This document shows positions 2,431 to 26,215 of a stretch of 64,000 bases of DNA, piece by piece (positions within the stretch are counted from its first letter, which is position 1; each line of letters starts with the position of its first letter). Source of the stretch: Myxococcota bacterium. GTDB lineage: Bacteria > Myxococcota > Kuafuiibacteriia > Kuafuiibacteriales > Kuafuiibacteriaceae. The position numbers and the translations under genes were made by a program. The stretch lies in contig JAYZDF010000104.1 in the NCBI GenBank assembly GCA_036337945.1, positions 15,401-79,400 of the forward strand. Reading direction: 5' to 3'. Below the pieces are notes generated by a model that was not told the DNA's origin, did not search any database, and saw only the letters and a program-made list of their open reading frames with translations.

Positions 2431-4269
2431 CTACGAAGTCTCTAAAGGAATCACAAAAGAAAACTTTGTGCCATCAGGTGACGACTTAAACGTTACCTTT
2501 CCATGATGCTCTTCTGCGATCTGTTTCACCATGGCTAGGCCTAATCCTGTACCGCCTTTTTTACCGGAAGTTGCAAACGGCTGAAATAATCTCGTCTTCA
2601 CCTCATCCGGAATACCTGGTCCATTATCTATAAAATCAAATCGTAAGCGGTTCATTCGTTTCGAAACGATCACCTCGAACAATCCACCGCCAGGCATAGC
2701 TTCACAGGCGTTCCTTGCGAGATTATGGAAAACACGACGCATCTTATTTTCATCAAATCGCGCTGGTCCCTTATAACGAATTCGAAAGTTTAGTTGCACG
2801 CCTGTCCCTTTCATTTCTTGAAGTAAATGCTTTTCCATATTTTCCATAAAACGTTCCAGGTACACTTTACGGACAAGGATAGTGTGATCTCCTCGAGCGA
2901 ATCCGAGAAGCTCTTTTGTCATAGAATTCATGACTTGAACTTGTTTCTTAATCTCGCGAGCGTATTCGTCTCGTGCTTCCTCATCGGAAGACCGCGCCAT
3001 CAGTTGGCTATATCCGGTGATAAGAGTCATTGGCGTTCGAATATCGTGAACTACTCCGGACAACATACCGCCAATACTCGCAAGTCGAGAGGCTCTTTCG
3101 CGCTCATCCCTTTGCTGAAGGGCGTAAATGGCCCTACCTGCCTGGCCGGCAACGACTGAAAGAGCTTGGACAGCATCAGCGCCAAATGGCCGCTTAACTT
3201 TCCGATTAATGAGCTCCAAAATTCCTAAAAGATCGCCATTGCGGTTCCGGATCGGCACAGCAAGCAATGAACGAAGACGAATACGGCCACGAACGATCTC
3301 TCCCTCTTCGATTTCATTGTAGATACAAGGTTCTTGGTCATGAAGGACGACAGATAAGACCGGGTCGTCAACGTCGGGATATAATCGCATGAGCTGTTTT
3401 TGGTTCGATCCGGCGGCGGCGGCGACTTCAATACAATCGTTTTGTTGATCGATCATATAAATAAGCGCACTACGAGCAAACAAATGGTCCAATGCCGTTT
3501 CAAGAATGACCTCGAACATTTCGTTCAGTTCGACTGCTTGAGAAATGATTGTTTCCGTTTCGTATAAAAGCTGAAGTTTTGAGCGAGACCTTTCGATAGT
3601 CTCGTTCTGCTCAACTACATTTTGATAAAGAAGCATGACCTCGAGGGCTACCCCGACCGAGGATGCTATTGAATCTAATAATCGCTTGTCATGGTTATCA
3701 AAATTTCCAATCAGCTTATTGAGAACTTGAATGACACCCATGACCTGGTCGGTGCGAGGATGTCTCACAGGCCAGACAAGCATACACCTTGTCCTGTATC
3801 CCGAACGTTTATCGATATCTCGATTGAAGCGTTTATCGTTGTAAGCATCTTCAATATGTACTGATTCGCCGGACTCCGCGACCCACCCCGCAAGACCTGT
3901 TCCTCTCGGAAGAACTAAGTTCTTCATTTCATCCGCCTGAATCACAGAAGAAACGAGGTCGCCGGTATCTGTATCGATAAGAAATAGTGTCGTTCTGTCT
4001 GCCCCAAGCAGTTGAGTCGTCCGATTGATGAGCTGCATCAAGAGTCTGTTTGGGTCTAAACCCGAAGCGAGCGTTTGCTGAACGACCTTCATCGCCTCTA
4101 TTCGTTTCTCAGACCGTTCTAGCTCGCGCTGAAGGTCGTCAATTTCGTCTTCCAGTTCTTGTTCACGTCGCAAGTAGTGCTCATGACTACCAACACTCGA
4201 TTGTCTTCTTGGAAGAGCTTTCGGGCGCTGTTTATTACCAACTAGGGTTCTAGTTTTTGACGACGCCAT
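2431..4269 (-). CDS. sensor histidine kinase with N-terminal coiled coil and two GAF domains
   Basis: H-box HDIRTPMTLITGY, N-box RVFHNLARNACEAM, and G-boxes DNGPGIP and GTGLGLAMV. The two GAF-like segments contain LFLIDTDTGDLVS... and LIYMIDQQNDCIE... Confidence 0.85.
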   Translation of the reverse strand: MASSKTRTLVGNKQRPKALPRRQSSVGSHEHYLRREQELEDEIDDLQRELERSEKRIEAMKVVQQTLASGLDPNRLLMQLINRTTQLLGADRTTLFLIDTDTGDLVSSVIQADEMKNLVLPRGTGLAGWVAESGESVHIEDAYNDKRFNRDIDKRSGYRTRCMLVWPVRHPRTDQVMGVIQVLNKLIGNFDNHDKRLLDSIASSVGVALEVMLLYQNVVEQNETIERSRSKLQLLYETETIISQAVELNEMFEVILETALDHLFARSALIYMIDQQNDCIEVAAAAGSNQKQLMRLYPDVDDPVLSVVLHDQEPCIYNEIEEGEIVRGRIRLRSLLAVPIRNRNGDLLGILELINRKVKRPFGADAVQALSVVAGQAGRAIYALQQRDERERASRLASIGGMLSGVVHDIRTPMTLITGYSQLMARSSDEEARDEYAREIKKQVQVMNSMTKELLGFARGDHTILVRKVYLERFMENMEKHLLQEMKGTGVQLNFRIRYKGPARFDENKMRRVFHNLARNACEAMPGGGLFEVIVSKRMNRLRFDFIDNGPGIPDEVKTRLFQPFATSGKKGGTGLGLAMVKQIAEEHHGKVTFKSSPDGTKFSFVIPLETS

Positions 4270-6852: not shown

Positions 6853-9597
6853 CTAATGCGCTTCATCCCAGTTATCGCCTATATGTGCGACGGCCAAAAG
6901 CGGCACATTCAATGGAAATGCGCGCTCCATTTCGACTTTAACCAACTCAGCTACTGCTTCTGCTTCTGACGACGGCGCTTCCAAGAGTAATTCATCATGA
7001 ACCTGCAACAATACTTTGGCCTCAGGAAAATCCTCTTCGAGTCGATTTGATACTCGAATCATTGCAAGCTTTATGAGGTCAGCAGCACTGCCTTGAATCG
7101 GAGTATTCATAGCAATACGTTCGGACGCTGCGCGGGCACCGCGATTTTTTGACTCTATTTCTCGAACCCAACGTCTTCGACCCATAATCGTTGTCACAAA
7201 GCCCTTTTCTTTTGCATGCTCCAAAGTCTCGTCGAAAAACTTTCGAATTCCGGGTTGACGCTCAAAATAATCTTTAACAAATTGAGACGCTACTCTCCTT
7301 GGTATCTGCAACTCTCGAGCAAGCCTTACTGGACCCATCCCGTAAAGCACACCGAAGTTGACTGCTTTGGCTTGAGAGCGCTGCTCAAAAGAAACATCTT
7401 CTGGGGGTACCTCAAAAAGCACTGACGCAGTTCGAGTATGAACATCAGCATTATTTTGAAATGCTTCGACCAAAATCTTGTCTTCACAAAGATGCGCCAA
7501 TACGCGCAGTTCGATCTGTGAATAATCCACAGAAATCAATTTATGGTCAGGTTCAGGCACAAATGCTTTGCGAAGCTCACGACCAAGCGCCTTTCGAATC
7601 GGGATATTTTGTAAATTTGGGTCGCTCGACGAAAGACGACCCGTCGCTGCTACCGTTTGACTAAGGTTTGTATGAACGCGGTTCGTCGCCTTTGAGACCA
7701 TTTTCGGCAAAGATTGAACATAAGTTGATTGGAGTTTCGTAATTTGCCGAAAATCGAGAATAGTTCCGGGAAGAGGATGCATAGAAGCAAGCTCTTCAAG
7801 AACAGATTGGTCGGTAGACGGTCCAGTCTTAGTTCGTTTGATAATCTTTAGGCCTAACTCCTCAAAGAGTACCTCTCGTAATTGTTTTGGTGAGTTTACT
7901 TTAAACTCTCGACCTGCCAATTCGTGGCAATGTTTCTCAAGACGAATAATCTCTGACGAGAAATTGTCCTCAAGTCCTTTGAGAAACGCAACATCGACCT
8001 TCACACCATAGAGCTCCAATCGCGCTAAAACGCGAACAAGAGGCATCTCTATGTCGTTCATGACGGACAATAGGTCGCTTTTTGTGAGTTCTTCGTTGAG
8101 AATCGGCGCGACCTGTAAAGCAATATCTGCCCGTTGAGCGACAAACTGAAGCAGGTCTTCGGGAGCCAAATCCTCAACCTTCTTTTTGTCTCGTCCTGTA
8201 CCGATAATGCTTGAGCGGGAAGTACTGGTGGTTTGCAGGAACTTACGAGCAACATCTGCAACGCCATGAGGTCCGTCATCGGGGCCATGAACAATCGCAC
8301 TCGAAGACTCGTATCGATCTTCAGCATCAATGAGATAACTCGCGATGGAAGTATCAAGCTGCTCTCCGGCTAAGGTCATCTTATAAAGTTCCGCGAGGGC
8401 ATACCATTGCTTTGCAGAGGAAAACGTTTTGGCAATTTTGCTATCTTCGAGATAAGGCCGAAAGAATTCAAGAATATCCAATACGGTGAGTTCTCCGGTT
8501 GCAATGTATACAGCCTCACCGGGCGACCAAGCGAGTCCAAATCCAAAAATACGCGTATCGACCATTCGCGAACGTTCGTACTCCATTGACAAAGCTATAT
8601 GCGCACTAGAGGTGATTTCGGCAGAAAGTGAAGCGAGTTCATCTTTTGTTCGAACCAATCGATAATTGGTTTGAGTCTGTGCCGCTTTTGGTTTGGACGC
8701 TGCTGTAGAGCTGGTCTTCTCTTCTCTTTTATCGGAGCCACTTTCAGCTCGAGCCAGTAGGCGCCGAAATCCGAGCTCGCCGTACAGACGAACTTGTTCA
8801 TCTACGTTAGGACCACTGTATTTCAGACTCTCAATCGGTTCATCGATTTGCACGTTGTATTCGAGTTCGACCAGTTTTCGAGAAAGGCGTGCCTCATCCA
8901 CAGCGTCTGCGATTTTCTGACAGATTTTTCCTTTAATCCGCCCTTCTTGCGCCGCCTCAAGAACACCTTCTAGAGTTCCATGTTCTTTGAGTAACTTCGC
9001 CGCTGTTTTTTGGCCAACTCCGCGAACACCTGGGATGTTATCGGAGGCGTCACCCATGAGTGCCAACAGGTCCCCGATTTGCTCCGGCGGGACTCCAAAC
9101 TTTTCTTCTACTTCCTTGGCGCGATATAGTTTTTCTCGCATGGGTTCCCATAGCTCTACCCTATCGTTCACGAGCTGCATGAGATCTTTGTCACCGGTGA
9201 TGATCTTCACATCAAAATCATTTTCGAGAGCCAGCCTAGTCCAAGTTGCAATGTAATCGTCGGCCTCATATCCCTCTTTTTTATAGAGCGGGAGCTTGAA
9301 CGCTTCAGTCACTTCGTGAATACGAGCAAATTGAGGAACGAGGTCTTCAGGCGGAGGAGGACGGTTGGCTTTATAGGCTTCGTAAAGCTCAGTACGAAAG
9401 CTTTTCCGCGCTGTATCGAACATTATGGCGATATATTCAGGCTGCTCCTCGTCGAGAACTTTCTGAATCATACTCGCAAAGCCATAAACTGCATTGGTAG
9501 GCTCGCCAGAGGGACTGCTCAACGCACGAATGCCGTAATATGCTCGAAAGATATATCCCGAGCCATCAATGAGATAGAGTAATTTTCTTTTGGTCAA
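6853..9597 (-). CDS. polA: DNA polymerase I
   Basis: 914 aa. It has a 5'-nuclease N-terminus (LLYLIDGSGYIFRAYY, GDASDNIPGVRGVGQKTA) and polymerase motifs DYSQIELRVLAH, RSQAKAVNFGVLYGMG and QVHDELLLEAP. Confidence 0.97.
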   Translation of the reverse strand: MTKRKLLYLIDGSGYIFRAYYGIRALSSPSGEPTNAVYGFASMIQKVLDEEQPEYIAIMFDTARKSFRTELYEAYKANRPPPPEDLVPQFARIHEVTEAFKLPLYKKEGYEADDYIATWTRLALENDFDVKIITGDKDLMQLVNDRVELWEPMREKLYRAKEVEEKFGVPPEQIGDLLALMGDASDNIPGVRGVGQKTAAKLLKEHGTLEGVLEAAQEGRIKGKICQKIADAVDEARLSRKLVELEYNVQIDEPIESLKYSGPNVDEQVRLYGELGFRRLLARAESGSDKREEKTSSTAASKPKAAQTQTNYRLVRTKDELASLSAEITSSAHIALSMEYERSRMVDTRIFGFGLAWSPGEAVYIATGELTVLDILEFFRPYLEDSKIAKTFSSAKQWYALAELYKMTLAGEQLDTSIASYLIDAEDRYESSSAIVHGPDDGPHGVADVARKFLQTTSTSRSSIIGTGRDKKKVEDLAPEDLLQFVAQRADIALQVAPILNEELTKSDLLSVMNDIEMPLVRVLARLELYGVKVDVAFLKGLEDNFSSEIIRLEKHCHELAGREFKVNSPKQLREVLFEELGLKIIKRTKTGPSTDQSVLEELASMHPLPGTILDFRQITKLQSTYVQSLPKMVSKATNRVHTNLSQTVAATGRLSSSDPNLQNIPIRKALGRELRKAFVPEPDHKLISVDYSQIELRVLAHLCEDKILVEAFQNNADVHTRTASVLFEVPPEDVSFEQRSQAKAVNFGVLYGMGPVRLARELQIPRRVASQFVKDYFERQPGIRKFFDETLEHAKEKGFVTTIMGRRRWVREIESKNRGARAASERIAMNTPIQGSAADLIKLAMIRVSNRLEEDFPEAKVLLQVHDELLLEAPSSEAEAVAELVKVEMERAFPLNVPLLAVAHIGDNWDEAH

Positions 9598-9606
9598 AAT
9601 TTAATC

Positions 9607-10746
9607 CTATTGAGGAATACATGAAGATGTCGTCCACGTTGCGTCGAGGCGACCGCATATCGCTCCCGGTCGGTTGGTGCATTGACCTGAAGAATCACAA
9701 TTACGGAAACACATTCCAATACCTGCGAAAGTTTGACAGGTTTCATCCGGCGCACACGGCGTTGATTCGGCCAGACCGCTACAAATTCGAGTGCAATGCC
9801 CGCCGGTGAGGTTCCAGCCTCTTTCACCCATACAAACTTGTCCCTCTCCGCAAGAACGATTGTCTACACATGGGTCTCCAACTCGTGCGCCAAGTGTTTG
9901 CATCGGCGTGGGTTCACAGACTCCGGTTGCTCGACTGCAGTAGGTTGTCCCATTTCTTGGAGAGCAATCGAAAATATCATCACCGCAATTAGGGATACAA
10001 ATCCTGATCGGGCTATTAGGAATAGCGAAGCAGTGAGCATCACTACGGCAATCTAGATCGGTCGTGCAGCTGCCCATACATCCGATTCGGAAGCACTGAT
10101 TGTTCTGGCATCTTTCACCTGTCATGCAATCGTTATCGGTGGTGCACGTTTGGTTGCGCATATTGATATTGATGCAAGAGGAATTCGGCGGACATCCAGG
10201 CGTGCAATTTTCTACGGTGCAATAACCGCCCCACATGAAATTAATTTCCTGACGAGTCCAACAGGATAGTCCCATCGAGGTGTCACAATCTGTATCCATC
10301 TCACATCCGGCGCCGATTACACCCGCACCAATATCTCTTGGACCGGCATCTGGACCGGCATCTGGAGCCAAGGGGCAGGTTCCAGGTGTTTCGTTTCGGT
10401 CGAGACAGGGTTGCCCGGACGGACAACCTTGATTGTCGCAACACCAAACCGGTCCAACCCCGGCTGTCGAACAAATGCCATCCAGACAGGCAAGACCTTG
10501 TGAGCAATCGCAGGTTGAGTTGCAGGACCTCGGCGCACCGGCGTCGTGACGAATAAGAATTCCTCCGTCATAGTTGAGAATGGTTGAATCTGGAATGCCC
10601 GCCTCGGGCAAATCCGTTGAACTATCTACTTCTTCCACACCAGCATCAGCGCCGCTGGATGGATTTTCGCCGTTACTTTCAGAGCAGGAAAACCCCGCGA
10701 GGGATACGATCAGGCTCAAAGCGAGTATTTTAGGGCGAAAAAACAT
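9607..10746 (-). CDS. secreted cysteine-rich lipoprotein
   Basis: Signal and lipobox LAGFSC. The mature part is packed with repeated C-x-x-D-x-D-C...C modules (CEMDTDCDTS, CTTDNDCMTGERC, CTTDLDCRSDAHC). It ends 9 nt before the polA start on the same strand. Confidence 0.6.
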   Translation of the reverse strand: MFFRPKILALSLIVSLAGFSCSESNGENPSSGADAGVEEVDSSTDLPEAGIPDSTILNYDGGILIRHDAGAPRSCNSTCDCSQGLACLDGICSTAGVGPVWCCDNQGCPSGQPCLDRNETPGTCPLAPDAGPDAGPRDIGAGVIGAGCEMDTDCDTSMGLSCWTRQEINFMWGGYCTVENCTPGCPPNSSCININMRNQTCTTDNDCMTGERCQNNQCFRIGCMGSCTTDLDCRSDAHCFAIPNSPIRICIPNCGDDIFDCSPRNGTTYCSRATGVCEPTPMQTLGARVGDPCVDNRSCGEGQVCMGERGWNLTGGHCTRICSGLAESTPCAPDETCQTFAGIGMCFRNCDSSGQCTNRPGAICGRLDATWTTSSCIPQ

Positions 10747-10831
10747 AAGGTTCTTCTATACCTCGGGGCGATGCCTTTTCAAGCATTCCACAAAAACATC
10801 CGGTCCAAACTCTAGTTAACCCTAGGTTTGC

Positions 10832-13800
10832 GTGTTTTGCAGAAGATCGGGTTCGCGAATTGGAACCCCGCCTATCGAAGCGTTAGACTTTACGCGCGTG
10901 AACGAACCTCGAAAAAGTTCAAATCAGAAGTTTGGTTCTTACGTTCTTCTTGACCACATTGCAGACGGAGGAATGGCAGAGATCTTTCTGGCGAAACGTC
11001 AAGGATATTCTGGGTTTGAAAAATTTGTGGCGCTAAAACGCATTTTGCCCAGCTTCAACGAGCATGCAGCTTTTCGGGAAATGCTGATTCATGAGGCGAA
11101 GCTAGCAGCCAATCTTCAGCACCTCAACGTGGTTCAAGTTCTCGATTTGGGCGCGGTTGATGACCAGGTATATATCGCCATGGAATACATTCATGGACGA
11201 GATCTCGCATCATTACTCGCAAGAAATTTTAGGCGAAAAGAATGTATACCGTTGGCTTTGGCTCTCAGTATGGCCATCGAATTTCTCACCGGAATCGACT
11301 ACGCTCACCGACTGCAAGATGAAAGCGGTCAACCGAGAAATCTTATTCATCGAGATATCTCGCCGCAAAATATTCTGATCTCATATGAGGGAGAGGTCAA
11401 AGTCACAGATTTCGGTATTGCCCGCGCCTTCGCTTCAGATGGCGGCATCGAGAAACTATTCCCTGGAAGCGTGCAGGGGAAGTTTGGCTACATGTCGCCA
11501 GAGCAACTTAGAAAGCAAGCAATCGATCAACGCTCGGACATCTTTAGTGCTGGCGTAGTCCTTCACGAATTACTCACGGGTAGACGGCTTTTTTGGAGCA
11601 AGAACCCAAAAGACGCGGCATCAAAAATTCTCAATCAAGAAATTCCTGCGCCGTCTACCGTAAACGAGACAATCCCTGAAGAGATCGATGCGGTTGTCAT
11701 GAAAGCTCTAGAACGCGATAAAGAGAACCGATATCAAACGATTGGCTCTTTACTAGGAGAGCTCACAAAAGTAGCCGATAACCTAAAAGTTCATATCAGT
11801 CGCCGCGACATTGCAGTGTACATGCGCCGGCATTTCGGGACAAATAGTCCGAGGCCTAGAAGCACCGACGTTCAAAGAGCTCGGTCACTGACGCTTCCGA
11901 AAATATCATTAGCGAGCAGCTTTAGTGCTACTTCGGGACTTCGAACCCCTGTGGGTGACATTCTTATAAATAGAGGAAACCTAACCGTCTCGCAGCTGGA
12001 TATAGGACTCGCTCAGCAGCGCGCTCGTGGGGGGCGAATTGGTGAAATCCTAATCGAGCAAGGCGTAATTTCCGACCGAACATTAATCTCGGCGCTTGCG
12101 GAGCAAATTGATCTCAAAGTGTGTGAGCCGGGTGAACTATTGAGAAAGCCACCCTCATCACTTATCTTTGAGATCTTTCCATACGAAGCAGCGGAGTCTA
12201 TGGCGGTACTTGCTCTGGATCTCGAAACAGAAAAAGAAGGTTTGGCCAGGTTAGTTGTCACTGACCCATTTGACGAACGAAACCTTCTTGAAGCAAAAAT
12301 TATTCTTGGCGTAAATGAACTCGATATCAGCTTATCTACGAAAGACGAAATAAAGGAAGCCATCAACCACTGGTATCATCACGCAGGAAAGGCGGAAGAA
12401 GAAACACTTATGTTTAACATGAGGCTTCCAGCCCAAGAGTTTGAAAACTACTCGAAAGAGGTGACTCTTATTGTGTTTCAAAATGATGAGCTTCAAAAAC
12501 TTTTACAACAAGAGTTTTCGAATGAAATCATGTCTGTTGTCGGCGTTGATCACCACAAACAGCTCGTAGAAAAAATTACCGGCCGTCGACCTGAAATCGC
12601 AATTCTCGACTGCGCGAATGGCGATGTAGACACTCTAAAGCTTGTAGAAGAACTGAGGCGAGCTAACCAGAACCTCTGCTTATATGTTCTCGAAGATATC
12701 CCGGACATAAACAGGCAAGTTAATATCATTAATGCCGGCGCAAACGACATTTTCTCAGACGACAGTCAATTTCCATTTATCGTCGCTAAAACTCGACGAG
12801 AACTAAGTCGCCTTCCTAGCCGCTCATCCGCAGCCCTAATCACGAAGTCTCATAACATAGGCGTATCCGGCCCGCTCAGTGACATGACTTTTGTAGACGT
12901 AATTCAAAGCATTGAATTGGCCCAGAAAACCGCGGTGGTCAGTTTCTCTTATGAGGATGGACGCGCAGGCGAAGTCATCACGAGTCTGGGCAAAGTGAGG
13001 TCGGTGACTATGAAAGGGCCAAATTCGTCTGACGGAAATGCAAACTTTCATCAACTTGCCAAACCAGGTCGCGGGCGTTTTGAAATTCTTTATCAAGATA
13101 GCGACGCCCCATCGAATATCACTGAGAACAATACGCAATTACTTCTCGAAGCTATTCGTCAATATACCGAGCAATCCATCCGCGCAGACCCTGAGCAAGA
13201 AAGCGTGATCGCTGGCCTAGACGGCAGTGCCCAAGTGGCTATGTCGCAAGCACCTAATCCATACGACTTTCCTTTAGAGGAAGATTCAACGACTGAACTT
13301 CGTATCGCAGGGCTAAAGGCAATGGCTCAGTCACAACAGAGTTCCGTTGACGACAGTAATATTTTTACATGGTCTCCGGTAATTAGTGAGGAGTCGCAGG
13401 TACTAAAAAAGAACCAACTCGAGGAAGAGCCCCAGCGAAGTGACCCTTCATTTGAGGTAGATATTCTGGAGCCATCTGGCGATACAAACACGACTCCTCC
13501 CACTATCGATAACAATGACGCAGAAACAGAAATGGCTTTTGATGCTGCTCGTCTTGTCAATCAACTTGGTGAGGATGGAGGGCTAGACGATTTACCAATA
13601 TCTATCGATGCGAATAGCTTAATGGCGAACCCGAGCTCATCCGATATCCTTTTCGAAACAGATCCTCTCGAAACGATAGATTCTCAACCTTTTGACGCGC
13701 TAAATCCTTCACTTTCTCCCCCGTCAAACGCAACCGAAGAGAGTTCAGTCGACGCAGCAGGAGAGATTGAGTTTGGCTCACCAGACGAATTTCGAGCACG

Positions 13801-14272
13801 AGAAGAGCGAATGGGTCCTGACGAACCTGGTGCACCAAAGTACAATCTCGAATCAGAGCAAGACATATACGCATTACCCAAGATCTCCAACTTGGACAAA
13901 CATCCCGCCATTGAAAGTTCAGAGGCAAGCCCTGATGGACAACCTCTACCGCTACCCGTCGGAGCACTGACTGCTTTGCCAGATACAGGAGAAAAAGCGA
14001 AACGGTCTGATTCACAGCAAAAAAGAGGCGACGCTCAGAACCTTGCTCGCCTTAATTTGCAGAAAGTGGCGATCAAGAGAACGTCTTCATCCGCAGCTAA
14101 CGGCATCATAGAAGAAAAGGTTCGGGTGCAGCATATCAATATGTCAAAGCAGGAGCTCGCTCGTGAGACGTGGTCTGAAAACAGCGAGGACAGTGCAACG
14201 GAGGCGGACGACAGTGAAGATCTCCTTTTGTCTATTGACGACATCGTTGCTGACGATGAGGATCTGTTTTAA
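10832..14272 (+). CDS. multidomain Ser/Thr protein kinase: kinase, T2SSE_N/MshEN-like, receiver-like, DUF4388-like, long acidic tail
   Basis: Kinase motifs are GGMAEIFLAKR, HRDISPQNILI, DFGIAR and GYMSPEQ. The tandem MshEN-type motif is listed as a separate feature. A receiver-like segment reads PEIAILDCANGDVDTLKLVEELR. A DUF4388-like segment reads LSDMTFVDVIQSIELAQKTAVVSF...GRGRFEIL. The last roughly 350 aa are D/E/S-rich. The GTG start at 10832 is uncertain. Confidence 0.85.
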   Translation: MFCRRSGSRIGTPPIEALDFTRVNEPRKSSNQKFGSYVLLDHIADGGMAEIFLAKRQGYSGFEKFVALKRILPSFNEHAAFREMLIHEAKLAANLQHLNVVQVLDLGAVDDQVYIAMEYIHGRDLASLLARNFRRKECIPLALALSMAIEFLTGIDYAHRLQDESGQPRNLIHRDISPQNILISYEGEVKVTDFGIARAFASDGGIEKLFPGSVQGKFGYMSPEQLRKQAIDQRSDIFSAGVVLHELLTGRRLFWSKNPKDAASKILNQEIPAPSTVNETIPEEIDAVVMKALERDKENRYQTIGSLLGELTKVADNLKVHISRRDIAVYMRRHFGTNSPRPRSTDVQRARSLTLPKISLASSFSATSGLRTPVGDILINRGNLTVSQLDIGLAQQRARGGRIGEILIEQGVISDRTLISALAEQIDLKVCEPGELLRKPPSSLIFEIFPYEAAESMAVLALDLETEKEGLARLVVTDPFDERNLLEAKIILGVNELDISLSTKDEIKEAINHWYHHAGKAEEETLMFNMRLPAQEFENYSKEVTLIVFQNDELQKLLQQEFSNEIMSVVGVDHHKQLVEKITGRRPEIAILDCANGDVDTLKLVEELRRANQNLCLYVLEDIPDINRQVNIINAGANDIFSDDSQFPFIVAKTRRELSRLPSRSSAALITKSHNIGVSGPLSDMTFVDVIQSIELAQKTAVVSFSYEDGRAGEVITSLGKVRSVTMKGPNSSDGNANFHQLAKPGRGRFEILYQDSDAPSNITENNTQLLLEAIRQYTEQSIRADPEQESVIAGLDGSAQVAMSQAPNPYDFPLEEDSTTELRIAGLKAMAQSQQSSVDDSNIFTWSPVISEESQVLKKNQLEEEPQRSDPSFEVDILEPSGDTNTTPPTIDNNDAETEMAFDAARLVNQLGEDGGLDDLPISIDANSLMANPSSSDILFETDPLETIDSQPFDALNPSLSPPSNATEESSVDAAGEIEFGSPDEFRAREERMGPDEPGAPKYNLESEQDIYALPKISNLDKHPAIESSEASPDGQPLPLPVGALTALPDTGEKAKRSDSQQKRGDAQNLARLNLQKVAIKRTSSSAANGIIEEKVRVQHINMSKQELARETWSENSEDSATEADDSEDLLLSIDDIVADDEDLF
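11948..12106 (+). other. tandem 24-residue MshEN-type (c-di-GMP receptor) motif inside the kinase
   Basis: PVGDILINRGNLTVSQLDIGLAQQ, then RARGG, then RIGEILIEQGVISDRTLISALAEQ. The second copy fits RLGxx(L/V/I)(L/V/I)xxG(L/V/I)(L/V/I)xxxxLxxxLxxQ at every constrained position. The first copy fits except that Arg1 is Pro and one hydrophobic position is Asn. The spacer is 5 residues, as in the published motif. Confidence 0.6.
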
Positions 14273-14482
14273 TTGGATGGCGCTGTAAGGCAGAAGGTTA
14301 CGAGATATTGCGGCGATCTTTTAGAGCTGCTCGTAGACCTTCTACCAAATCATCTTAGTCTCGTTGAAATCGACGATCGATGGAATGAAACAAGCGGTTT
14401 TTATGATTAGCGGTGCCGTAGTCTTCTATTCATTGACCGCCAACGCAGTGCAGGCTCCGCAGAAGTAGCACAGGACATTGTT

Positions 14483-14986
14483 GTGAGTGCAACGGGGGAC
14501 GGCTGGACCATCGTCGACGAAGAGGACGAGCACGAAACCTTTCTGGAAAACGGAAATTCGACCTTATGTATTAAACTCGCCCGTTACCAGTCTGAAGAGG
14601 TTATCCAGTTAACTATTGAAGAGAAATGGCCTTCGGACGTCCATCCACCCGTCCAAATGTCAGACCTCTTCATTCAAGCCTGTCAAAACATTATTCAGCT
14701 CCACGATTTTCCGGTCAGTTTACATAGAGATTTATGTTTCGATATCCCCTCATCTGAACTTGTTAGGACGCGCTACGAACGCGTGCAGTATCGATTTGAT
14801 GAAAATATCGAAGGTCACCTCGCCCGTTCAGGATATAAAAAATCGGTCGAATCTATAGGGCTATGGACTCAATCGAGCATAGAAGGACACTATCGATTTG
14901 AGGCATCAGTCAACCTGAACTCTCGACTAAAGATACTCGATTACTCACTTCTCACCATTGACCAGTCCTTGAAGCTCGTCGACTAG
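14483..14986 (+). CDS. hypothetical protein
   Basis: 167-aa ORF with a GTG start, lying in an otherwise empty interval. I recognised no motif. Confidence 0.4.
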   Translation: MSATGDGWTIVDEEDEHETFLENGNSTLCIKLARYQSEEVIQLTIEEKWPSDVHPPVQMSDLFIQACQNIIQLHDFPVSLHRDLCFDIPSSELVRTRYERVQYRFDENIEGHLARSGYKKSVESIGLWTQSSIEGHYRFEASVNLNSRLKILDYSLLTIDQSLKLVD

Positions 14987-14994
14987 ATGCTGAC

Positions 14995-17505
14995 CTATTT
15001 CTTAAAGCGGGAGTCGTTTTTCGAAGTAAATGGACGCTGCTCGTCACGAGTAGGTGGACGTTCGCCGACTTTTGGCTTCTTAAAGTCATCAGAGAGCTTT
15101 CGACGCGTGGGCTCGCGTCCCGCAGGAATATCGTACGAGTGTGGACCAGGAGCCTGCGGCGCCTGCGCAGGGGGAAAATTTGGACGGAAACCTCCCGTAG
15201 AATGACGCTCCCTCTGTTGTTGAATTTGCGGATGGCGCACAGGTTGACGATTAGGCTGGGAACCGGGATCGCTAAACGGCCGGGGGTACGGCGGTTCGTT
15301 ACTTGGGGCGGACCAACCTGGAGGCGGCGCTTGCCACTGCGGCATCTCTGGATAAGTACGAGCGTTTTGTGGGTCCGTATTCCGCGGTTGTTGACCTGGG
15401 GGCGGAGGAATAGAGGTTGCGGGTCGACCAAAATGTGGATTTGGTGGATAGTGCTCTACTACTCCGCTTGCGGGGTTTGGTCGCCGCATCGCATTGTTCG
15501 AGACTTCGTTTTGAGAGTGGAACTGAGAGCGGTGACGACCTTGACTAGGTTGAGGATGTCCATCGGCTCCTACAGCATTTATAGAACGAGCACCTGGAAG
15601 GGGTCCACCCGGTGGTGGAGGTACCGAATGATGACTGGCTGTTCGTCGCGGCTGAGTTGGAATCCGCTCATCGAACTCGTTGCTCGGTACACCTGTTGTC
15701 GATGGCGAGTCCGGTTTTAGAAACACGGGGATGTCTTGTTCTGTTGCAACCCCGGGCACAGCGTTATCAATTGATGAGGCTGTTCGCTCGACATTACCGA
15801 CTGACCATTGAACTGTGTCCTCCTCTAACTCTGAAGACAGAGCCTCACTGGTGTTTTTGGCACTCGGACCTGAGATGCCCTCGGAAAAAGATTCTTGCGG
15901 CATCGACAAAGGTTCCGGATTCATTTGCGAGAGCATGCCGTGCTCGCCGAAGGAAACTGCAGGCATTTCAGGAACCGTTTCTCGATCTGATACCGGTGCT
16001 TGTGAAGAAGGTGAACTACCCACTGAGACTTTCTCTTCTGGGGCACTGACTAGGTTTGTCGGAAGCTCATCTGGCTGATTATGAGGCCTCAGTACGTTTG
16101 CAAAAAGCTCGTCTTCGGTTCGAGTGTCGCGAGGGTCTTCATCATAAACTCCCTGCGCATTTTCCACCAAAAGGTTTTTTTCTTTGCGCTGTCTATCGAT
16201 GATTCGTTGTAGCCAGTCTTTTTCGTTCGGCTCAAATTTTACAAATCCTCTTTCTACGAAATCGCTCCCAAGAGTCGCGGCTAAATTTGCCTCGCCCGCC
16301 CCGGGCGCCAACGCTCGCTTACAACCTTCCCTGACTTTCGCGTTCATGCTCTTGGCCGCTTTCTCAATGTGTGCTCGAGCTCTAGGGTCCTTCAATTGTG
16401 ATAAGGCAAATGCAGCGGAAAGCTGGACATCTACATTTTTCTTTTGGAACATTTTTGGTTTGAGCAGCTTCGAAAGAGCCGAAATGGAATCTGTCCCCGA
16501 AATCGCAGCAAATGCGCAAGTAAGAGCACGAACCTCTTTTGGCTCTAATTGCCAAATTTCATCGGAAAGTATTTGTAATCGTAAACTTGCTCGACACGCC
16601 TGGCTTCTTCTAATCGCTGCAACCTGGTAAGCGACGATTCGTACTTCCATAAGCTTATGCGCCAGGTGTTTCGCAAGAAGTTTATCTGCCGCGCCGGGGG
16701 GGAATTTCGGAAGCAATCGCAAGACCCGCATAATCAAAGCGGGGTGCTCTTGCTCAAGTGCTACAAGAATTAAAGAGGCGAGAACTTCGGTAGATACATA
16801 TGGTGCAAGATCAAAATAATCGAGCATCACGATCGGCTTCGCATTACGCATTACTTGCAGCAGTCGCTCCGGGTCAGGAATCTGATTTTTTGAAATAATA
16901 TTAATGAGAAGAGAACGCGTCTCTTTTTCCTTCACCGTATTTAGAGCAGCTAGCAGTGCATCTAATCCTATCTCGCTGATCGCTTGCAAGTAACTAAGGA
17001 TTGAAGGTCTTGAAGAAAAGTGTTGAGGATCTTCGAGGCGGTTGACCAATAGCTCGAGAATTGCCGGCATGGTCAATGCTTTTTGAAGATGTCGACCCGC
17101 ATGCATAGCGGTCAGGTCCTCACTTTGTGCGGCACGGCTGGCGATACTCCTGACGAGAACAACGGACGCATCATACTCGCCGAGGCGGTGAATAATATTT
17201 ACTAATTTCTGAACTCGAGCGATGGTGCTCGGCAGCGCTTTGGAGCTTGGATGACTAAAAAAACGCTCAATAGTACATTCGGTCAATAATGCGAGAATCA
17301 AGGGAAGAGGTGTCGTACTCATTCGCTGTTCAATAACGGCTAAATGATTTTCGTCGAGCGTCTCAGTGGCCTCTTGAGCGAAGTCTTCAAACGTATCTCC
17401 AGTTAAGAACAGAGAAGAGACAAGATCATTAGGCAGTCTCGCGACTTCATCAGCGATGCGACGTGCTACGTTCGCCGCTGAGATATTTGGTTGATTCCCG
17501 CTCAC
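14995..17505 (-). CDS. HEAT-repeat protein with a long Pro/Gln-rich C-terminal tail
   Basis: 836-aa uninterrupted ORF. The N-terminal half is helical with HEAT/PBS-lyase-like repeats (LSAAFALSQLKDPRARAHIEKAAKSMNAKVREGCKRAL). The last roughly 350 aa are P/Q/G/S-rich and low in complexity. Confidence 0.6.
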   Translation of the reverse strand: MSGNQPNISAANVARRIADEVARLPNDLVSSLFLTGDTFEDFAQEATETLDENHLAVIEQRMSTTPLPLILALLTECTIERFFSHPSSKALPSTIARVQKLVNIIHRLGEYDASVVLVRSIASRAAQSEDLTAMHAGRHLQKALTMPAILELLVNRLEDPQHFSSRPSILSYLQAISEIGLDALLAALNTVKEKETRSLLINIISKNQIPDPERLLQVMRNAKPIVMLDYFDLAPYVSTEVLASLILVALEQEHPALIMRVLRLLPKFPPGAADKLLAKHLAHKLMEVRIVAYQVAAIRRSQACRASLRLQILSDEIWQLEPKEVRALTCAFAAISGTDSISALSKLLKPKMFQKKNVDVQLSAAFALSQLKDPRARAHIEKAAKSMNAKVREGCKRALAPGAGEANLAATLGSDFVERGFVKFEPNEKDWLQRIIDRQRKEKNLLVENAQGVYDEDPRDTRTEDELFANVLRPHNQPDELPTNLVSAPEEKVSVGSSPSSQAPVSDRETVPEMPAVSFGEHGMLSQMNPEPLSMPQESFSEGISGPSAKNTSEALSSELEEDTVQWSVGNVERTASSIDNAVPGVATEQDIPVFLKPDSPSTTGVPSNEFDERIPTQPRRTASHHSVPPPPGGPLPGARSINAVGADGHPQPSQGRHRSQFHSQNEVSNNAMRRPNPASGVVEHYPPNPHFGRPATSIPPPPGQQPRNTDPQNARTYPEMPQWQAPPPGWSAPSNEPPYPRPFSDPGSQPNRQPVRHPQIQQQRERHSTGGFRPNFPPAQAPQAPGPHSYDIPAGREPTRRKLSDDFKKPKVGERPPTRDEQRPFTSKNDSRFKK

Positions 17506-20700: not shown

Positions 20701-23700
20701 TTATGGATTGATTTGTCGCCACCAAAGCTTCAACACTGGAATCTCTTCCTTCTCTCTTGTTTTCTTTTGAGTCGTGGCCGCAACCAGGCCGCCACTGGCA
20801 TTATCAACAGGATTATTAAATCCGGCATGTATAACGCCACTCTCCGCGTCATGAGCGATTCCCGTCAGTTGGCCATTGGGGGTATTAACGTTTGCACCTG
20901 GACGGATGACGAAAGCATTAAGGTTATCTGAGTTGTCAGTGTTCAGACCTTGAGTACAGTCATCAAAGTAAATGCCATAGATACGACCTTCACCAACACC
21001 GCAAGTGTTGCTGTCAGGAGCATAGCTCGTGAAGAGGAAAGAGCCTCCTCCCAAGACCGGGTCAAAAATTACCTTTTCGCCCTGAGGGAGTTTCATGACT
21101 CCATAACCACCTCGGGCTCCTTCGTTAACAAAAGGCGAACCGGGAATGTTTGAGCCACAAGCGTCCTCAATCCGTGCTAAATTTCGTGGGTCATCAACAT
21201 CGGAGCCATCCATAACCATGGGAGCTGTATCGATAACTTTGAACACATAATTTTGTTCGTTTACGTCTTGCACATCTTCATAGTTGCCCGTGGCAAAGAA
21301 TAATGTGAGTCGGCCCGCGGGATCATAAGTCGCAACTAACTTGGTGTAGGAGAGAATATTTGCAGTGTCTTGATGAACTTGAGTGACTGCGCGTCGTCCA
21401 TCGAAGAATTTTCGAACAGTCATGCCTTGGCTTGGGTCTGAGTTTGTAAAACGTACCTTATAAATATCAGCTTCGGTTGTGAGAATGTAGCAGGTGTCTA
21501 CATAACTGTCTCCACTGGCATCGATACAGGTTGGTGTTCCAGCAAAATCCGCATCCGCCAACTCGCTCGCGGGACTATGCCAATAGGCTCCGTCTTCAAG
21601 GCCCACGACAAGCAAGCTGCCGGCTCGATTACCCGCTGCGCCTCCGATGAGGGCTTCTTGCATCCCGCCACCCATGACACCGACGTAGTACGGCATAGCA
21701 ACGCCGTTTACGACTCGCTTTACGCGATGAATTTGTGGTCTAGAAGTCGTGGTCACTCGAGCGGTTGGGGCACTCGCGCTATTTCCGGTCGTATTTGTTT
21801 GACGAGTAAATTCACGCTCCCAAAGAAGTTGAGGATTGTAGGGATTAGTTACATCCATGGCGAAACAACCTGGTCCCCCAATTCCAAGACACTGCAACAG
21901 AACAGTTCGGTATTCCCAATCGTTACAGTTGTTCGTGTCGTGCCGATTACATATCGACGCAGCATTAGTTGCAGGACTGATGTTGCCTTTGGTGAAAAGG
22001 ACGTCGGACACCACTGGCGACCCATCGATCATGTAAAAGTGGCCTGCTTTTAAATATCCCCAAGACTCTTGGAGCATTCCCGGTGAATAAGCCCAAAGCT
22101 CCTGGCCATGACAGCGCTCTCGATCAGCACCTGTACAATCACTAGCGATTTTATCATACTCAATCGCAACCTTGTTTTCGGTGTCATATTGGCCGGTCGT
22201 CTCACCAACTAAGAATGCATGCAAAAATCCATCATTACCACCGACGTAAACGACACGATCTCTCGTACCCACCGTTTGGTCATTAGCGGCGTTGCTAATT
22301 GACGCACTCACATTGCCGCTGCTGCGTGGGATATTCATTTCCAAGAAATGTCGCCACCGCTTCAAATCTTCAGCAAGCCCGGTTGGAGCACCAACAATGA
22401 CGGGCCGACTATTCGCGATATCGGCAATCTTGAAATGCCGATCGAGACACGCTTGATTCCGTGGATTCTGCGAATCATTAACATCTGTGTTCCCGGCGCT
22501 GTTTGTAGTGTCCGGTGCTCCATCGTTGTTTGCATCAGTGCAGCATCCACTCGGAGAATTGGGTGCCGCATCGCTATCGCAATCCCAATCACCTCGGAAA
22601 GGGCCGCTTTCAAGTTTCGCGACAGGATTACCGGTGAGATAAGCGATGTCATTGTATTTGAGATTTAGTTGACGGAATAGGCGTAAGTTTCCTGGTGAAC
22701 TTCCTGTAATATCTTGCGTCAGCCGATTTGCACCAATTCCGTGTTGAAAAGGTGTGTCAATAGGAATCATCGAGGCGTCATTACCTGTGCAACGATCGCC
22801 TGAGTGTCCCGCAAAGTCACCACAATTGAATTCACCCGGGGGTGCATTAGAACTGCTAGCCCCTACACCCTGTGGATAACTCGTAAGCATCCGGCGGTTG
22901 AAGTTATGCAATTGCTCTAGCACCTGACCCATGCTCACTGTTTCCCTATGAGCACCTTGTTCACCCGGAAGCGGGGTAGATTCTCCGTTGTCATCGAGCT
23001 TTATCCATGAAACATCTCCAGGACGTCCAAAGTTACACAGACCAAAAGGAACACCCGTGCAGTTCGGAATGGTGAAAGAGGAATACACAATATGTTCACC
23101 GAAACGGCTGATACTCGGAGTGGCACCAATATAATCACCTGGCGACAAGAGCTCCATGACCTGAGTAAACGCCGCTTTCAAAACCGAAAGGTCGCTGATT
23201 GCGCCACCCGGTGCACCTTCAAATGCTTCCGTAATTCCATCGTTGCCGAAACCGCCCTCGCCTTGCTGACCATCGAAGCCCCAGTCAGCGACGCGATCCG
23301 CATCATCTTTTTCCGATACGCCAAAGTGAATCGCAAAGACTTGGTTGGCAAATTGTTGTCCTTGCGTACACGTCGGGTCATTGCCCTGAGGTGGACCAGG
23401 ATTCCCGTTCGAATCAAAAACGACGCAAGAAAGATCGAGATTCCCTTCTTGGCTACGCATATTGAAAATTTGGCCCGCTGACGCGCCATTGGATAAACCG
23501 TTCCAACCGTTGTCACCACCATGGCCGTCCTGAAGCATAATGGTAAAGTTTCTACGGCATCCGCCACCGGTCGTTCCGTTCGGTGCGTTAATCAGAACGT
23601 TCGTTTGATCTTGATCAATGACCTGATTGTCGTTTGGCGGAAAACCTCCAGGGATGTAGCGATTCGGTGCGCCATACTGGCGCTGACTAGAGATAAGCTG

Positions 23701-24360
23701 AGGACTCGTTTGAGGAGGTGAAATTCCCGGTTTCCAGTAGTCGTGAACATATTGTAGCGCACGAGCCTGCCGACTCTCGGCATTAGAAGCACTGGTTGAT
23801 CCCCGTTGAGGCATCCAACTGTTGAGTCCGTAATAACAGGTGTTGGAATTACCAGGTAAAATTTCAAAACACCCCATCCCAAAATCAATCATGGTTTTTT
23901 GGGCTCTTTCATTGTCCGAAGTTGGGTCGATAGCAAGTCGGGGACCGGTGCCGTCATACCACGTCAGGCCCCACCGATAACCACGATATACATCCATGAT
24001 GCCATCGGTCGAAACACGTGCGTCAGAATTCGCGACACGACCGTTGGAGTTCCAACCCCACCCTCCGGTCAGAACTTGGCGAGCTAACTGGAGTCGCGTT
24101 TCACCTCGGCGATAAATATGTGCATCGTCGTGACCGTCGGAATGACCATTTCTGGTGTGACAAAGACCGCGACAAGTCTCACCATTAATCAACGTTGTTC
24201 GAGTTGCATCCATCACCACCATGATGTTGGGTGCAGGTCGAACAGCAACGGTCGGGTCGTAAGGAACTTGAGCCTGCGCAATACTCGAACCAAATCCAGC
24301 AAAGCAGGTTACGATGATAAGTTCTCTGAAGGTACGGATATTTTTATTCTGAGTTTTCAT
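20701..24360 (-). CDS. pilY1: type IV pilus tip-associated adhesin PilY1-like
   Basis: 1219 aa with a signal peptide. The N-terminal vWA-like start is PNIMVVMDATRTT. The beta-propeller signature VYVGGNDGFLHAF is present. A Ca-site-like DANNDGAPD lies at 22510..22536. It sits immediately downstream of four prepilin-type genes. Confidence 0.8.
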   Translation of the reverse strand: MKTQNKNIRTFRELIIVTCFAGFGSSIAQAQVPYDPTVAVRPAPNIMVVMDATRTTLINGETCRGLCHTRNGHSDGHDDAHIYRRGETRLQLARQVLTGGWGWNSNGRVANSDARVSTDGIMDVYRGYRWGLTWYDGTGPRLAIDPTSDNERAQKTMIDFGMGCFEILPGNSNTCYYGLNSWMPQRGSTSASNAESRQARALQYVHDYWKPGISPPQTSPQLISSQRQYGAPNRYIPGGFPPNDNQVIDQDQTNVLINAPNGTTGGGCRRNFTIMLQDGHGGDNGWNGLSNGASAGQIFNMRSQEGNLDLSCVVFDSNGNPGPPQGNDPTCTQGQQFANQVFAIHFGVSEKDDADRVADWGFDGQQGEGGFGNDGITEAFEGAPGGAISDLSVLKAAFTQVMELLSPGDYIGATPSISRFGEHIVYSSFTIPNCTGVPFGLCNFGRPGDVSWIKLDDNGESTPLPGEQGAHRETVSMGQVLEQLHNFNRRMLTSYPQGVGASSSNAPPGEFNCGDFAGHSGDRCTGNDASMIPIDTPFQHGIGANRLTQDITGSSPGNLRLFRQLNLKYNDIAYLTGNPVAKLESGPFRGDWDCDSDAAPNSPSGCCTDANNDGAPDTTNSAGNTDVNDSQNPRNQACLDRHFKIADIANSRPVIVGAPTGLAEDLKRWRHFLEMNIPRSSGNVSASISNAANDQTVGTRDRVVYVGGNDGFLHAFLVGETTGQYDTENKVAIEYDKIASDCTGADRERCHGQELWAYSPGMLQESWGYLKAGHFYMIDGSPVVSDVLFTKGNISPATNAASICNRHDTNNCNDWEYRTVLLQCLGIGGPGCFAMDVTNPYNPQLLWEREFTRQTNTTGNSASAPTARVTTTSRPQIHRVKRVVNGVAMPYYVGVMGGGMQEALIGGAAGNRAGSLLVVGLEDGAYWHSPASELADADFAGTPTCIDASGDSYVDTCYILTTEADIYKVRFTNSDPSQGMTVRKFFDGRRAVTQVHQDTANILSYTKLVATYDPAGRLTLFFATGNYEDVQDVNEQNYVFKVIDTAPMVMDGSDVDDPRNLARIEDACGSNIPGSPFVNEGARGGYGVMKLPQGEKVIFDPVLGGGSFLFTSYAPDSNTCGVGEGRIYGIYFDDCTQGLNTDNSDNLNAFVIRPGANVNTPNGQLTGIAHDAESGVIHAGFNNPVDNASGGLVAATTQKKTREKEEIPVLKLWWRQINP

Positions 24361-24367
24361 CTATCTT

Positions 24368-24907
24368 TTAATCCATGTTGTAACTTTGGCTACCGGACGT
24401 CACGAGCTTCAAACCCGAGGTCACACCGTATTCGCCACCATACTGAACGACAGTATTGCCCACGTTAGCTGGAACGGCATAGGAACGAATCTCCCAAATA
24501 ACTGTCTGCACAGAGGCGCTACCGACTTGCTGACCCGCGGGCGGAGGGCCGCTTGCCAAATAAGGCTCTGATGTCGCGGCGTACTGCATCACGCCAGCCA
24601 GATCGAATTCGTCCACGTTAGCAGCATTCGGCGAGGGCCAAGGTGTCCAATCGATATTTACATTCACCGCGCTCATAGGGTCGTTCTTCGCCGTCTCAAT
24701 CTGTGCCATGCGATGAACTGCACCCGCAGCGGCCGCGCGGCTCACCATTATATTTTTATTGAAGCGTCGAAATGAACGGGTATCAGATTCAACCATCTTC
24801 AGTCCGAAGAGCCCACCCGACATCAAAATGGTCAGAAGCATCAAGACTAGAATCATTACGAATCCTTGCTTACTGTGGTTCTTTGTTTTCATACTTGAGT
24901 TCCTCAC
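24368..24907 (-). CDS. pilX: PilX-like minor pilin
   Basis: The N-terminus KQGFVMILVLMLLTILMSGG is a hydrophobic prepilin-like helix lacking Glu5, as in PilX. Its position between the pilW-like gene and pilY1 fits. Its start overlaps the pilW-like stop by 4 nt. Confidence 0.55.
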   Translation of the reverse strand: MRNSSMKTKNHSKQGFVMILVLMLLTILMSGGLFGLKMVESDTRSFRRFNKNIMVSRAAAAGAVHRMAQIETAKNDPMSAVNVNIDWTPWPSPNAANVDEFDLAGVMQYAATSEPYLASGPPPAGQQVGSASVQTVIWEIRSYAVPANVGNTVVQYGGEYGVTSGLKLVTSGSQSYNMD

Positions 24908-26214: not shown

Positions 26215-26215
26215 A

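Follow-up and report, generated by a model that had tools for sequence, protein, structure and literature searches.

We analysed a 64,000-nucleotide stretch of a Myxococcota genome (GenBank assembly GCA_036337945.1, contig JAYZDF010000104.1; hereafter the window) and found that it encodes a Hanks-type Ser/Thr protein kinase carrying an internal MshEN domain, the cyclic di-GMP (c-di-GMP) receptor domain known from MshE of Vibrio cholerae. By analogy with characterised MshEN proteins, it is probable that this domain binds c-di-GMP and tunes the output of the kinase, within a regulatory cassette ordered MshEN-receiver-PATAN. The kinase gene occupies 10832..14272 on the + strand in the list of open reading frames (ORFs), with a GTG start and a TAA stop at 14270-14272, and specifies 1146 aa. 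An earlier note on this DNA had placed a tandem MshEN-type motif in the kinase at 11948-12106. Translation of that segment on the + strand gives PVGDILINRGNLTVSQLDIGLAQQRARGGRIGEILIEQGVISDRTLISALAEQ, which is exactly residues 373-425 of the kinase and lies within the ORF 10832..14272. The presence of an MshEN-type motif in a Hanks kinase was borne out by hidden Markov models (HMMs), by the predicted fold and by conservation in about 79 homologues.

The tandem motif and its predicted fold

Residues 373-425 consist of two 24-residue half-sites joined by the 5-residue spacer RARGG. Half-site I, PVGDILINRGNLTVSQLDIGLAQQ, covers residues 373-396 (11948..12019, +; translation and match to NCBIfam model NF053729), and half-site II, RIGEILIEQGVISDRTLISALAEQ, covers residues 402-425 (12035..12106, +; translation and motif pattern). 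The spacer, residues 397-401 (12020..12034, +; family alignment), is exactly 5 residues long, as the earlier note had stated. Both terminal glutamines (Q396 and Q425), both position-3 glycines (G375 and G404) and all the leucines of positions 17 and 21 (L389, L393, L418 and L422) are present. Copy 2 had been called a perfect match and turned out to be near-perfect: it reads RIG, with Ile for Leu at position 2, otherwise fits the published motif, and passes the strict form of the motif once L/I/V/M are permitted at position 2. Copy 1 departs from the consensus three times, with Pro at position 1, Val at position 2 and Asn at position 11; the Pro and the Asn had been recognised and the Val had been missed. 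The position-2 changes in both copies are conservative. A tolerant regular expression for the half-site gave no further copy among the long ORFs of the 64 kb translated in six frames. An antisense ORF over the motif region (12013..12366, 117 aa) was set aside as a by-product of the kinase reading frame.

The NCBIfam model NF053729 ('c-di-GMP_motif, MshE-related') matched residues 374-425 with 54.9 bits (cutoff 38, E 5e-15), covering model positions 2-53 of 53, and the isolated segment scored 59.3 bits. Proven binders scored likewise gave values on either side of this one, namely MshE (86.1 bits), PilF GSPII-B (62.5), PilF GSPII-C (61.1) and NfrB (55.5). Among non-binders, XpsE scored 17.1 bits, and the PilB proteins of Pseudomonas aeruginosa and V. 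cholerae gave no match. The Pfam check proposed in the earlier note was also positive, with PF05157 (MshEN) above its cutoff (26.0 against 23.1 bits), although this match covers residues 438-519 only. These residues form the C-terminal alpha/beta subdomain of MshEN (T2SSE_N1-like; 12143..12388, +; Pfam PF05157, AlphaFold2 and Foldseek). According to Wang et al. 2016 (PMC5013675), the Pfam T2SSE_N model of that year left out the binding helices and covered just what follows them.

Comparison with Vibrio MshE, likewise proposed beforehand, identified this protein both by sequence and as the best structural match. When residues 361-535 were searched against the sequences of the PDB, the matches included Thermus thermophilus PilF (4.8e-17) and V. 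cholerae MshE (5HTL, 8.6e-7), together with several PilB N-domains and XpsE. An AlphaFold2 model of the same residues, built from 26 family sequences, had a mean predicted local distance difference test score (pLDDT) of 86.4 and a predicted template modelling score (pTM) of 0.76. It contains helices at 374-380, 386-399, 403-409 and 415-426, followed by the alpha/beta subdomain. The top Foldseek match of the model in the PDB was the MshE-c-di-GMP complex 5HTL, with a target-normalised template modelling (TM) score of 0.82-0.85; the superposition had a root-mean-square deviation of 2.5-2.8 A over 145 columns at an identity of ~23%. The c-di-GMP-bound structures of PilF GSPII-B came next, and the PilB(N)-PilZ complexes 7LKO and 7LKM were also matched. 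As judged from the model, the assignment of the MshEN fold to residues 361-535 is secure, and the bundle of four helices in this genuine MshEN domain corresponds to residues 373-425.

Conservation of the site and the proline of half-site I

A search of a protein collection yielded a family set of ~79 proteins with 40-85% identity, including a protein identical to the window kinase (P0001). Most homologues share the architecture Pkinase, MshEN, REC and PatA_N, and a few are truncated or short of one or more domains. The homologues with a named source are labelled as Myxococcota, Myxococcales or Deltaproteobacteria (metagenome-assembled genomes); most carry no such name, and as far as sources are named, the family is restricted to Myxococcota. 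A pattern-based genome scan for orthologues mostly caught the generic kinase motif YIAMEYIH. The two loci from it that were inspected, L007 and L029, were rejected, as they encode unrelated transmembrane kinases; the gene context described below comes from loci located by exact matches to homologous proteins.

The earlier note had regarded conservation in orthologues as a test of its reading. The tandem motif with its 5-residue spacer and both glutamines was kept in 76 of the 79 proteins. In half-site I, G375 and Q396 are invariant (79/79 each), L393 is present in 78, L378 in 75 and P373 in 57. In half-site II, Q425 is invariant, and R402, G404 and L407 are found in 74, 78 and 76 proteins, respectively. 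Entropy averaged 1.02 bits over the 22 key motif positions and 1.88 bits over the 26 'x' positions. This pattern strongly supports a predicted site that is under constraint at the positions contacting the ligand. The spacer was found to be more conserved still, with R397, A398 and G400 in 79/79, G401 in 74/79 and a mean entropy of 0.29 bits. The spacer of MshEN domains in general has been described as non-conserved (Wang et al. 2016, PMC5013675). Possible roles for a near-invariant RARGG are extra contacts to the phosphates or an interdomain interface.

Pro373 departs from the consensus, and the earlier note had allowed that it might destroy the first half-site. This concern was not sustained: Pro373 does not appear to be a lesion, because proline is the family consensus at this position (Pro 57/79, Leu 12, Ala 7) and occurs in proven binders. 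Two positions ahead of it stands a basic residue, Arg371 (11942..11944, +; family alignment), which is Arg in 69 of the 79 proteins and Lys in 6, so that the family pattern is R-x-P-h-G. The first motif of Escherichia coli NfrB reads LRPLGQILL, with Pro at position 1, and NfrB binds c-di-GMP with a Kd of 1 uM (Junkermeier and Hengge 2021, PMC8669469). The same position is Pro in T. thermophilus PilF GSPII-C (KPLGEILV), a c-di-GMP binder (PMC12002112), and in P. aeruginosa PA2677 (WIPLGQRLL), which is 99% identical to the tested binder PA14_29490 and is among the experimentally characterised binders of Wang et al. 2016 (PMC5013675). The relaxed motif of these authors begins [RKPN]hG and so admits Pro (PMC5013675).

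Position 1 of PilF GSPII-B can be Lys or Leu; the K167L variant has an affinity of 2 nM, and K167R is a poorer binder (PMC11731258). Its authors widened the consensus to (R/K/L) and considered hydrophobic stacking decisive at position 1 (PMC11731258). Since K167L binds at 2 nM, this position seems to require a side chain that can stack, and not specifically Arg. For binding, the backbone amides at the start of helix 1 must be free, and an additional stable turn of helix there blocks it in GSPII-A. Pro373 immediately precedes helix 1, which starts with residue 374 in both predicted (apo) models of the window protein. The proline could thus favour the binding-competent state.

Domain order, mechanism and alternative readings

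The kinase was predicted to be a soluble, cytoplasmic multidomain Hanks-type Ser/Thr kinase. No transmembrane segment was found in it, the top 19-residue Kyte-Doolittle average being 1.62 and lying within the kinase fold. Residue numbering rests on the GTG start at 10832; the true start could lie a few codons downstream, because the first 30 residues are predicted to be disordered in a model of 800 residues. The protein kinase domain spans residues 39-302 (10946..11737, +; Pfam PF00069, 139.9 bits, E 1.3e-40). It has K69, E88, H173-R-D175, N180, D193-F-G195 and S222-P-E224, and the catalytic Lys, the alphaC Glu and the HRD...N, DFG and APE-type motifs are invariant in 78/78 aligned homologues. 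With these catalytic residues intact and invariant, the kinase should be active. A variable disordered linker, residues 339-370 (11846..11941, +), joins the kinase domain to MshEN; its pLDDT is <50 for 342-368, and its column entropy of 2.95 bits is the highest in the family.

MshEN is followed by a degenerate receiver (pseudo-REC), residues 546-642 (12467..12757, +), which scored 25.4 bits on Pfam PF00072, under the cutoff of 30.2. A receiver fold is nevertheless predicted with confidence in the 800-residue model. The signature positions read F549, N551, D593, L620 and D643 (F-N-D-L-D), and we classify the domain as a pseudo-receiver because this signature is lost and the fold is kept. Among the two closest relatives, P0002 also reads F-N-D-L-D and P0003 reads V-N-T-I-S. 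Most family members have D-D-D-T-K; the acceptor is Glu in ten. Proteins of all these kinds retain an intact MshEN motif, those of the window lineage with its decayed receiver among them. As this receiver lacks the phosphorylation signature, c-di-GMP would be the main remaining input in this lineage. A PATAN domain (PatA_N / DUF4388) occupies residues 679-781 (12866..13174, +). It matches Pfam PF14332 with 39.1 bits (cutoff 25) over model positions 1-121 of 122, at a pLDDT of ~90 in the 800-residue model. The remainder, residues 795-1146 (13214..14269, +), is an acidic Ser/Pro-rich tail by composition (Asp+Glu 21%, Lys+Arg 7%) with no Pfam match. Its conservation among homologues is poor and its length varies, whole proteins ranging from 647 to 1740 aa, and it is probably disordered.

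By analogy with MshE, PilF and NfrB, the MshEN bundle would clamp one monomeric c-di-GMP. A position-1 residue (Pro373 or Arg402) and a leucine cluster would flank each guanine, and this base would be read by backbone amides at the start of helix 1 (Gly375-Asp376) and of helix 3 (Gly404-Glu405), while Gln396 and Gln425 would hold the ribose-phosphate. The ligand would then alter the packing of MshEN on neighbouring domains and in this way tune kinase output, with an effect on catalysis, on partner docking via PATAN, or on both. A comparable arrangement has been proposed for NfrB, in which c-di-GMP on the C-terminal MshEN is thought to activate the N-terminal glycosyltransferase allosterically (PMC8669469). 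The narrower proposal that c-di-GMP on the internal MshEN directly switches kinase catalysis, replacing phosphorelay input in the window lineage, where the receiver has decayed and the MshEN site and its spacer have not, is in our judgement less likely than not.

Several observations weigh against a c-di-GMP-responsive kinase. Position 11 of copy 1 is Asn (Asn383) where the consensus is hydrophobic, in a column where the family varies (Ala 31, Ser 17 and Val 14 among 79). A search of the 64 kb for signatures of diguanylate cyclases and EAL proteins gave no GGDEF match and just three trivial E[AV]LxR matches; nor did tblastn find in the window a homologue of the HD_5 protein that adjoins more distant kinase loci (see below). 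The 800-residue model, in which the individual domains are confident and the linkers 342-368, 522-541 and 664-673 are of low confidence (pLDDT <50), has a pTM of 0.45 and gives no reliable interdomain arrangement, contacts between MshEN and the kinase domain included. Finally, the non-binder PilF GSPII-A scores 51.4 bits on NF053729, above the cutoff of 38, and stays non-binding after its consensus residues are restored (PMC12002112). Because GSPII-A passes, we rejected NF053729 as a decisive classifier and regard a match as evidence of a necessary type, which places the window protein among predicted binders.

The case of GSPII-A belongs to a broader alternative, that the MshEN/GSPII fold serves here as a protein-protein interaction or scaffolding module and binds no nucleotide. 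The N-domains of XpsE/GspE, P. aeruginosa PilB, Xanthomonas PilB-N (which binds PilZ) and GSPII-A are precedents, many MshEN homologues do not bind (notes to Supplementary Table 3 of Wang et al., PMC5013675), and the PilB(N)-PilZ complexes were among our structural matches. The known non-binders, however, have lost terminal Gln, Gly or Leu residues (GSPII-A has H33, R62, S39 and A41), and PA4526, VC2424 and XpsE fail NF053729. The window protein, unlike GSPII-A, keeps both glutamines and both glycines; these and the four leucines of positions 17 and 21 are nearly invariant in the 79 homologues, which is hard to account for without a ligand. Pro373 may also argue against a stable N-terminal extension of helix 1. 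We therefore consider a non-binding module unlikely, and c-di-GMP binding by the window protein quite likely as judged from its sequence. Chance resemblance in a helical, Leu/Gln-rich linker, which has nothing in its favour beyond the shortness of each half-site, can be regarded as refuted by the E value of 5e-15, the matched N1 subdomain, the 5HTL fold, the 79 homologues and the lack of any other match in the 64 kb.

Two further alternatives accept a nucleotide ligand. R-x-P-h-G and RARGG might retune the specificity of the domain toward another cyclic dinucleotide, for example 3',3'-cyclic GMP-AMP (cGAMP), a product of some myxobacteria. V. cholerae MshEN binds cGAMP, more weakly (Wang et al., Figure 1h, PMC5013675), M. 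xanthus has 3',3'-cGAMP signalling (PMC8844925), and the spacer, non-conserved in MshEN generally, is nearly invariant in this family. Set against this, both half-sites have the Gly and following backbone amides that are said to read guanine O6/N7 and to exclude adenine (PMC5013675), and their symmetry in key residues favours a symmetric di-guanine ligand, so that we judge a change of ligand very unlikely. Alternatively, c-di-GMP may bind without catalytic effect and set the location or partners of the kinase, for example at the type IV pilus motor, via PATAN and the acidic tail. The PATAN domain in Synechocystis serves PatA-type regulators as their output domain and binds PilB1 and PilC of the pilus motor (bioRxiv 10.1101/2021.06.11.447907), a cluster of PilY1 and minor-pilin genes lies 6 kb downstream of the kinase in the window and in L081, the locus of a 67%-identical orthologue, and the domains of the kinase are joined by flexible linkers in the 800-residue model. 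In L082 and L083, however, which are more distant, the pilus cluster does not adjoin the kinase, and the literature consulted gave no interaction data for myxobacterial PATAN domains. An effect confined to location or partners thus has a lesser but appreciable chance, and it is a variant of ligand-tuned kinase output and not a true alternative to it. PATAN may in either case tie kinase output to the type IV pilus machinery.

Gene neighbourhood and known systems

The genes around the kinase are conserved to different extents. Upstream in coordinate order, a soluble histidine kinase with GAF-GAF-HisKA-HATPase_c domain matches (2431-4269, -) is followed by genes for a tryptophan dioxygenase and an amino-acid permease, by polA (6853-9597, -) and by the gene for a Cys-rich protein of 379 aa (9607-10746, -) that lacks a Pfam match and begins with a signal- or lipoprotein-like segment. 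A small conserved gene without a Pfam match (14273-14986, +) begins with a TTG directly after the kinase stop, which is also the case in L081. Beyond it lie a gene for a protein of 836 aa that is matched by HEAT_2 only weakly and is rich in Pro and Gln in its C-terminal half (14995-17505, -), genes for an asparagine synthase and an Acetyltransf_6 protein, and a type IV pilus tip/minor-pilin cluster (20701-27582, -), after which comes a sigma-70 factor. The cluster was seen to comprise a PilY1-like protein of 1219 aa, an ORF of 179 aa without an assignment, a PilW-like protein and two pilins with N-methyl motifs. The gene order of the window is common to L081, and L082 and L083, which carry homologues of ~45% identity, keep polA, the kinase, the HEAT protein, AsnB and the acetyltransferase. 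Because the sigma factor directly follows the acetyltransferase in L083, the pilus cluster looks like an insertion in this lineage.

In L082 and L083, a gene for a 484-aa HD_5 (HD-GYP-like) protein lies convergent to the kinase and directly 3' of it (10656-12110 and 10766-12220, respectively, both -). L081 and L084 carry a small + strand gene in this position, as does the window. This HD_5 neighbour, together with the MshEN-HD-GYP-REC-DUF4388 protein of M. xanthus, gives modest support to a c-di-GMP link.

Other observations concern individual neighbours. By eye, the HD_5 protein of L082 seems to be without the canonical HD and GYP residues. In the small gene of the window, an in-frame TAG at 14408-14410 replaces a CAA (Gln) codon of the L081 gene (237 aa), and the distal part remains open (ORF 14483-14986, 56% identical to L081); the TAG could be a nonsense mutation, the mark of a pseudogene or a sequencing error. 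The HEAT-like protein adjoins the kinase in L082 and L083, with 30% identity over 293 residues between the window and L082 proteins. M. xanthus has an MshEN-UNK-HEAT protein, FrgA (Wang et al. 2016, PMC5013675), and no MshEN motif was seen in the 836-aa HEAT-like protein of the window. The position of the Cys-rich gene is kept in L081 and L084. L082 and L084 also have the GAF histidine kinase in the vicinity of the Ser/Thr kinase, and no response regulator gene was seen beside the window copy. This histidine kinase could be the phosphodonor for the intact receivers of other family members.

Signalling by c-di-GMP and Hanks-type Ser/Thr phosphorylation are two major bacterial systems, and myxobacteria are unusually rich in both. 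Caulobacter CckA and ShkA are protein kinases under direct allosteric control by c-di-GMP, in ShkA via a pseudo-receiver; both are histidine kinases, with binding sites unrelated to MshEN. A direct MshEN link between the two systems has been predicted from domain architecture since 2016. The present family offers a clean test case, with an intact kinase, a constrained MshEN, and natural variants in which the receiver is either functional or not. If c-di-GMP does switch kinase catalysis directly, this would be the first demonstrated second-messenger-gated bacterial eukaryotic-like Ser/Thr kinase family, and if both binding and regulation hold, c-di-GMP levels would be tied to the phosphorylation networks of social and predatory bacteria.

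The earlier note had placed the coupling of a kinase to c-di-GMP outside the standard picture of either pathway, which was overstated. Wang et al. 2016 named a Ser/Thr protein kinase among the MshEN fusion partners in their main text (PMC5013675), and their Supplementary Table 4 lists Pkinase-MshEN-UNK-REC for PKN11 of Stigmatella aurantiaca (STAUR_4477, Myxococcales), whose motif is aligned in their Supplementary Figure 3c (PMC5013675). Junkermeier and Hengge noted MshEN in proteins of 'protein phosphorylation', most of them uncharacterised (PMC8669469). The fusion itself is thus not new, and NCBI models recognise the motif. The window protein falls in the published Pkinase-MshEN class, as a Hanks kinase N-terminal to MshEN in one polypeptide from Myxococcota, and adds to this known class a well-documented member and a conserved motif variant; it opens no new class. 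Some details appear undocumented, including the REC-PATAN order, the R-x-P-h-G variant, the near-invariant spacer and the decayed receiver. Our literature searches found no experimental work on any kinase-MshEN protein.

The window protein and V. cholerae MshE (5HTL) agree in their two 24-residue half-sites set 5 residues apart, in both Gln and both Gly, in the leucines of positions 17 and 21 and in a four-helix bundle with an alpha/beta subdomain. In MshE, however, the domain is N-terminal to a type II secretion/type IV pilus ATPase and motif I begins R-L-G, whereas in the window protein it is internal, C-terminal to the kinase, and motif I begins R-x-P-V-G. NfrB resembles the window protein in having MshEN C-terminal to an enzymatic domain and Pro in motif I (LRPLG), and the NfrB model NF008411 matches residues 371-534 of the window protein; its output is a GT2 membrane glycosyltransferase, with no REC or PATAN. 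PilF, the best PDB match by sequence, has Pro in GSPII-C (KPLG) and tolerates Lys and Leu in GSPII-B (PMC11731258, PMC12002112), but carries three tandem domains ahead of a pilus ATPase. M. xanthus MXAN_2809 (MshEN-HD-GYP-REC-DUF4388) also combines MshEN, REC and PATAN in one protein (PMC5013675), although an HD-GYP phosphodiesterase follows MshEN there and a kinase precedes it in the window.

The nearest studied case to a kinase-MshEN protein is Pkn1 of M. xanthus, in which a Hanks kinase likewise carries a domain from a family of c-di-GMP receptors; that domain is a PilZ without the binding motifs and is predicted to be non-binding (PMC8316039). S. aurantiaca PKN11, from a member of the Myxococcales, resembles the window protein in its order of a Hanks kinase, MshEN (near residue 390) and a receiver. 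PKN11 has a canonical RIG start of motif I and an uncharacterised domain before REC, whereas in the window kinase motif I starts R-x-P-V-G, REC follows directly after MshEN, and PATAN comes next.

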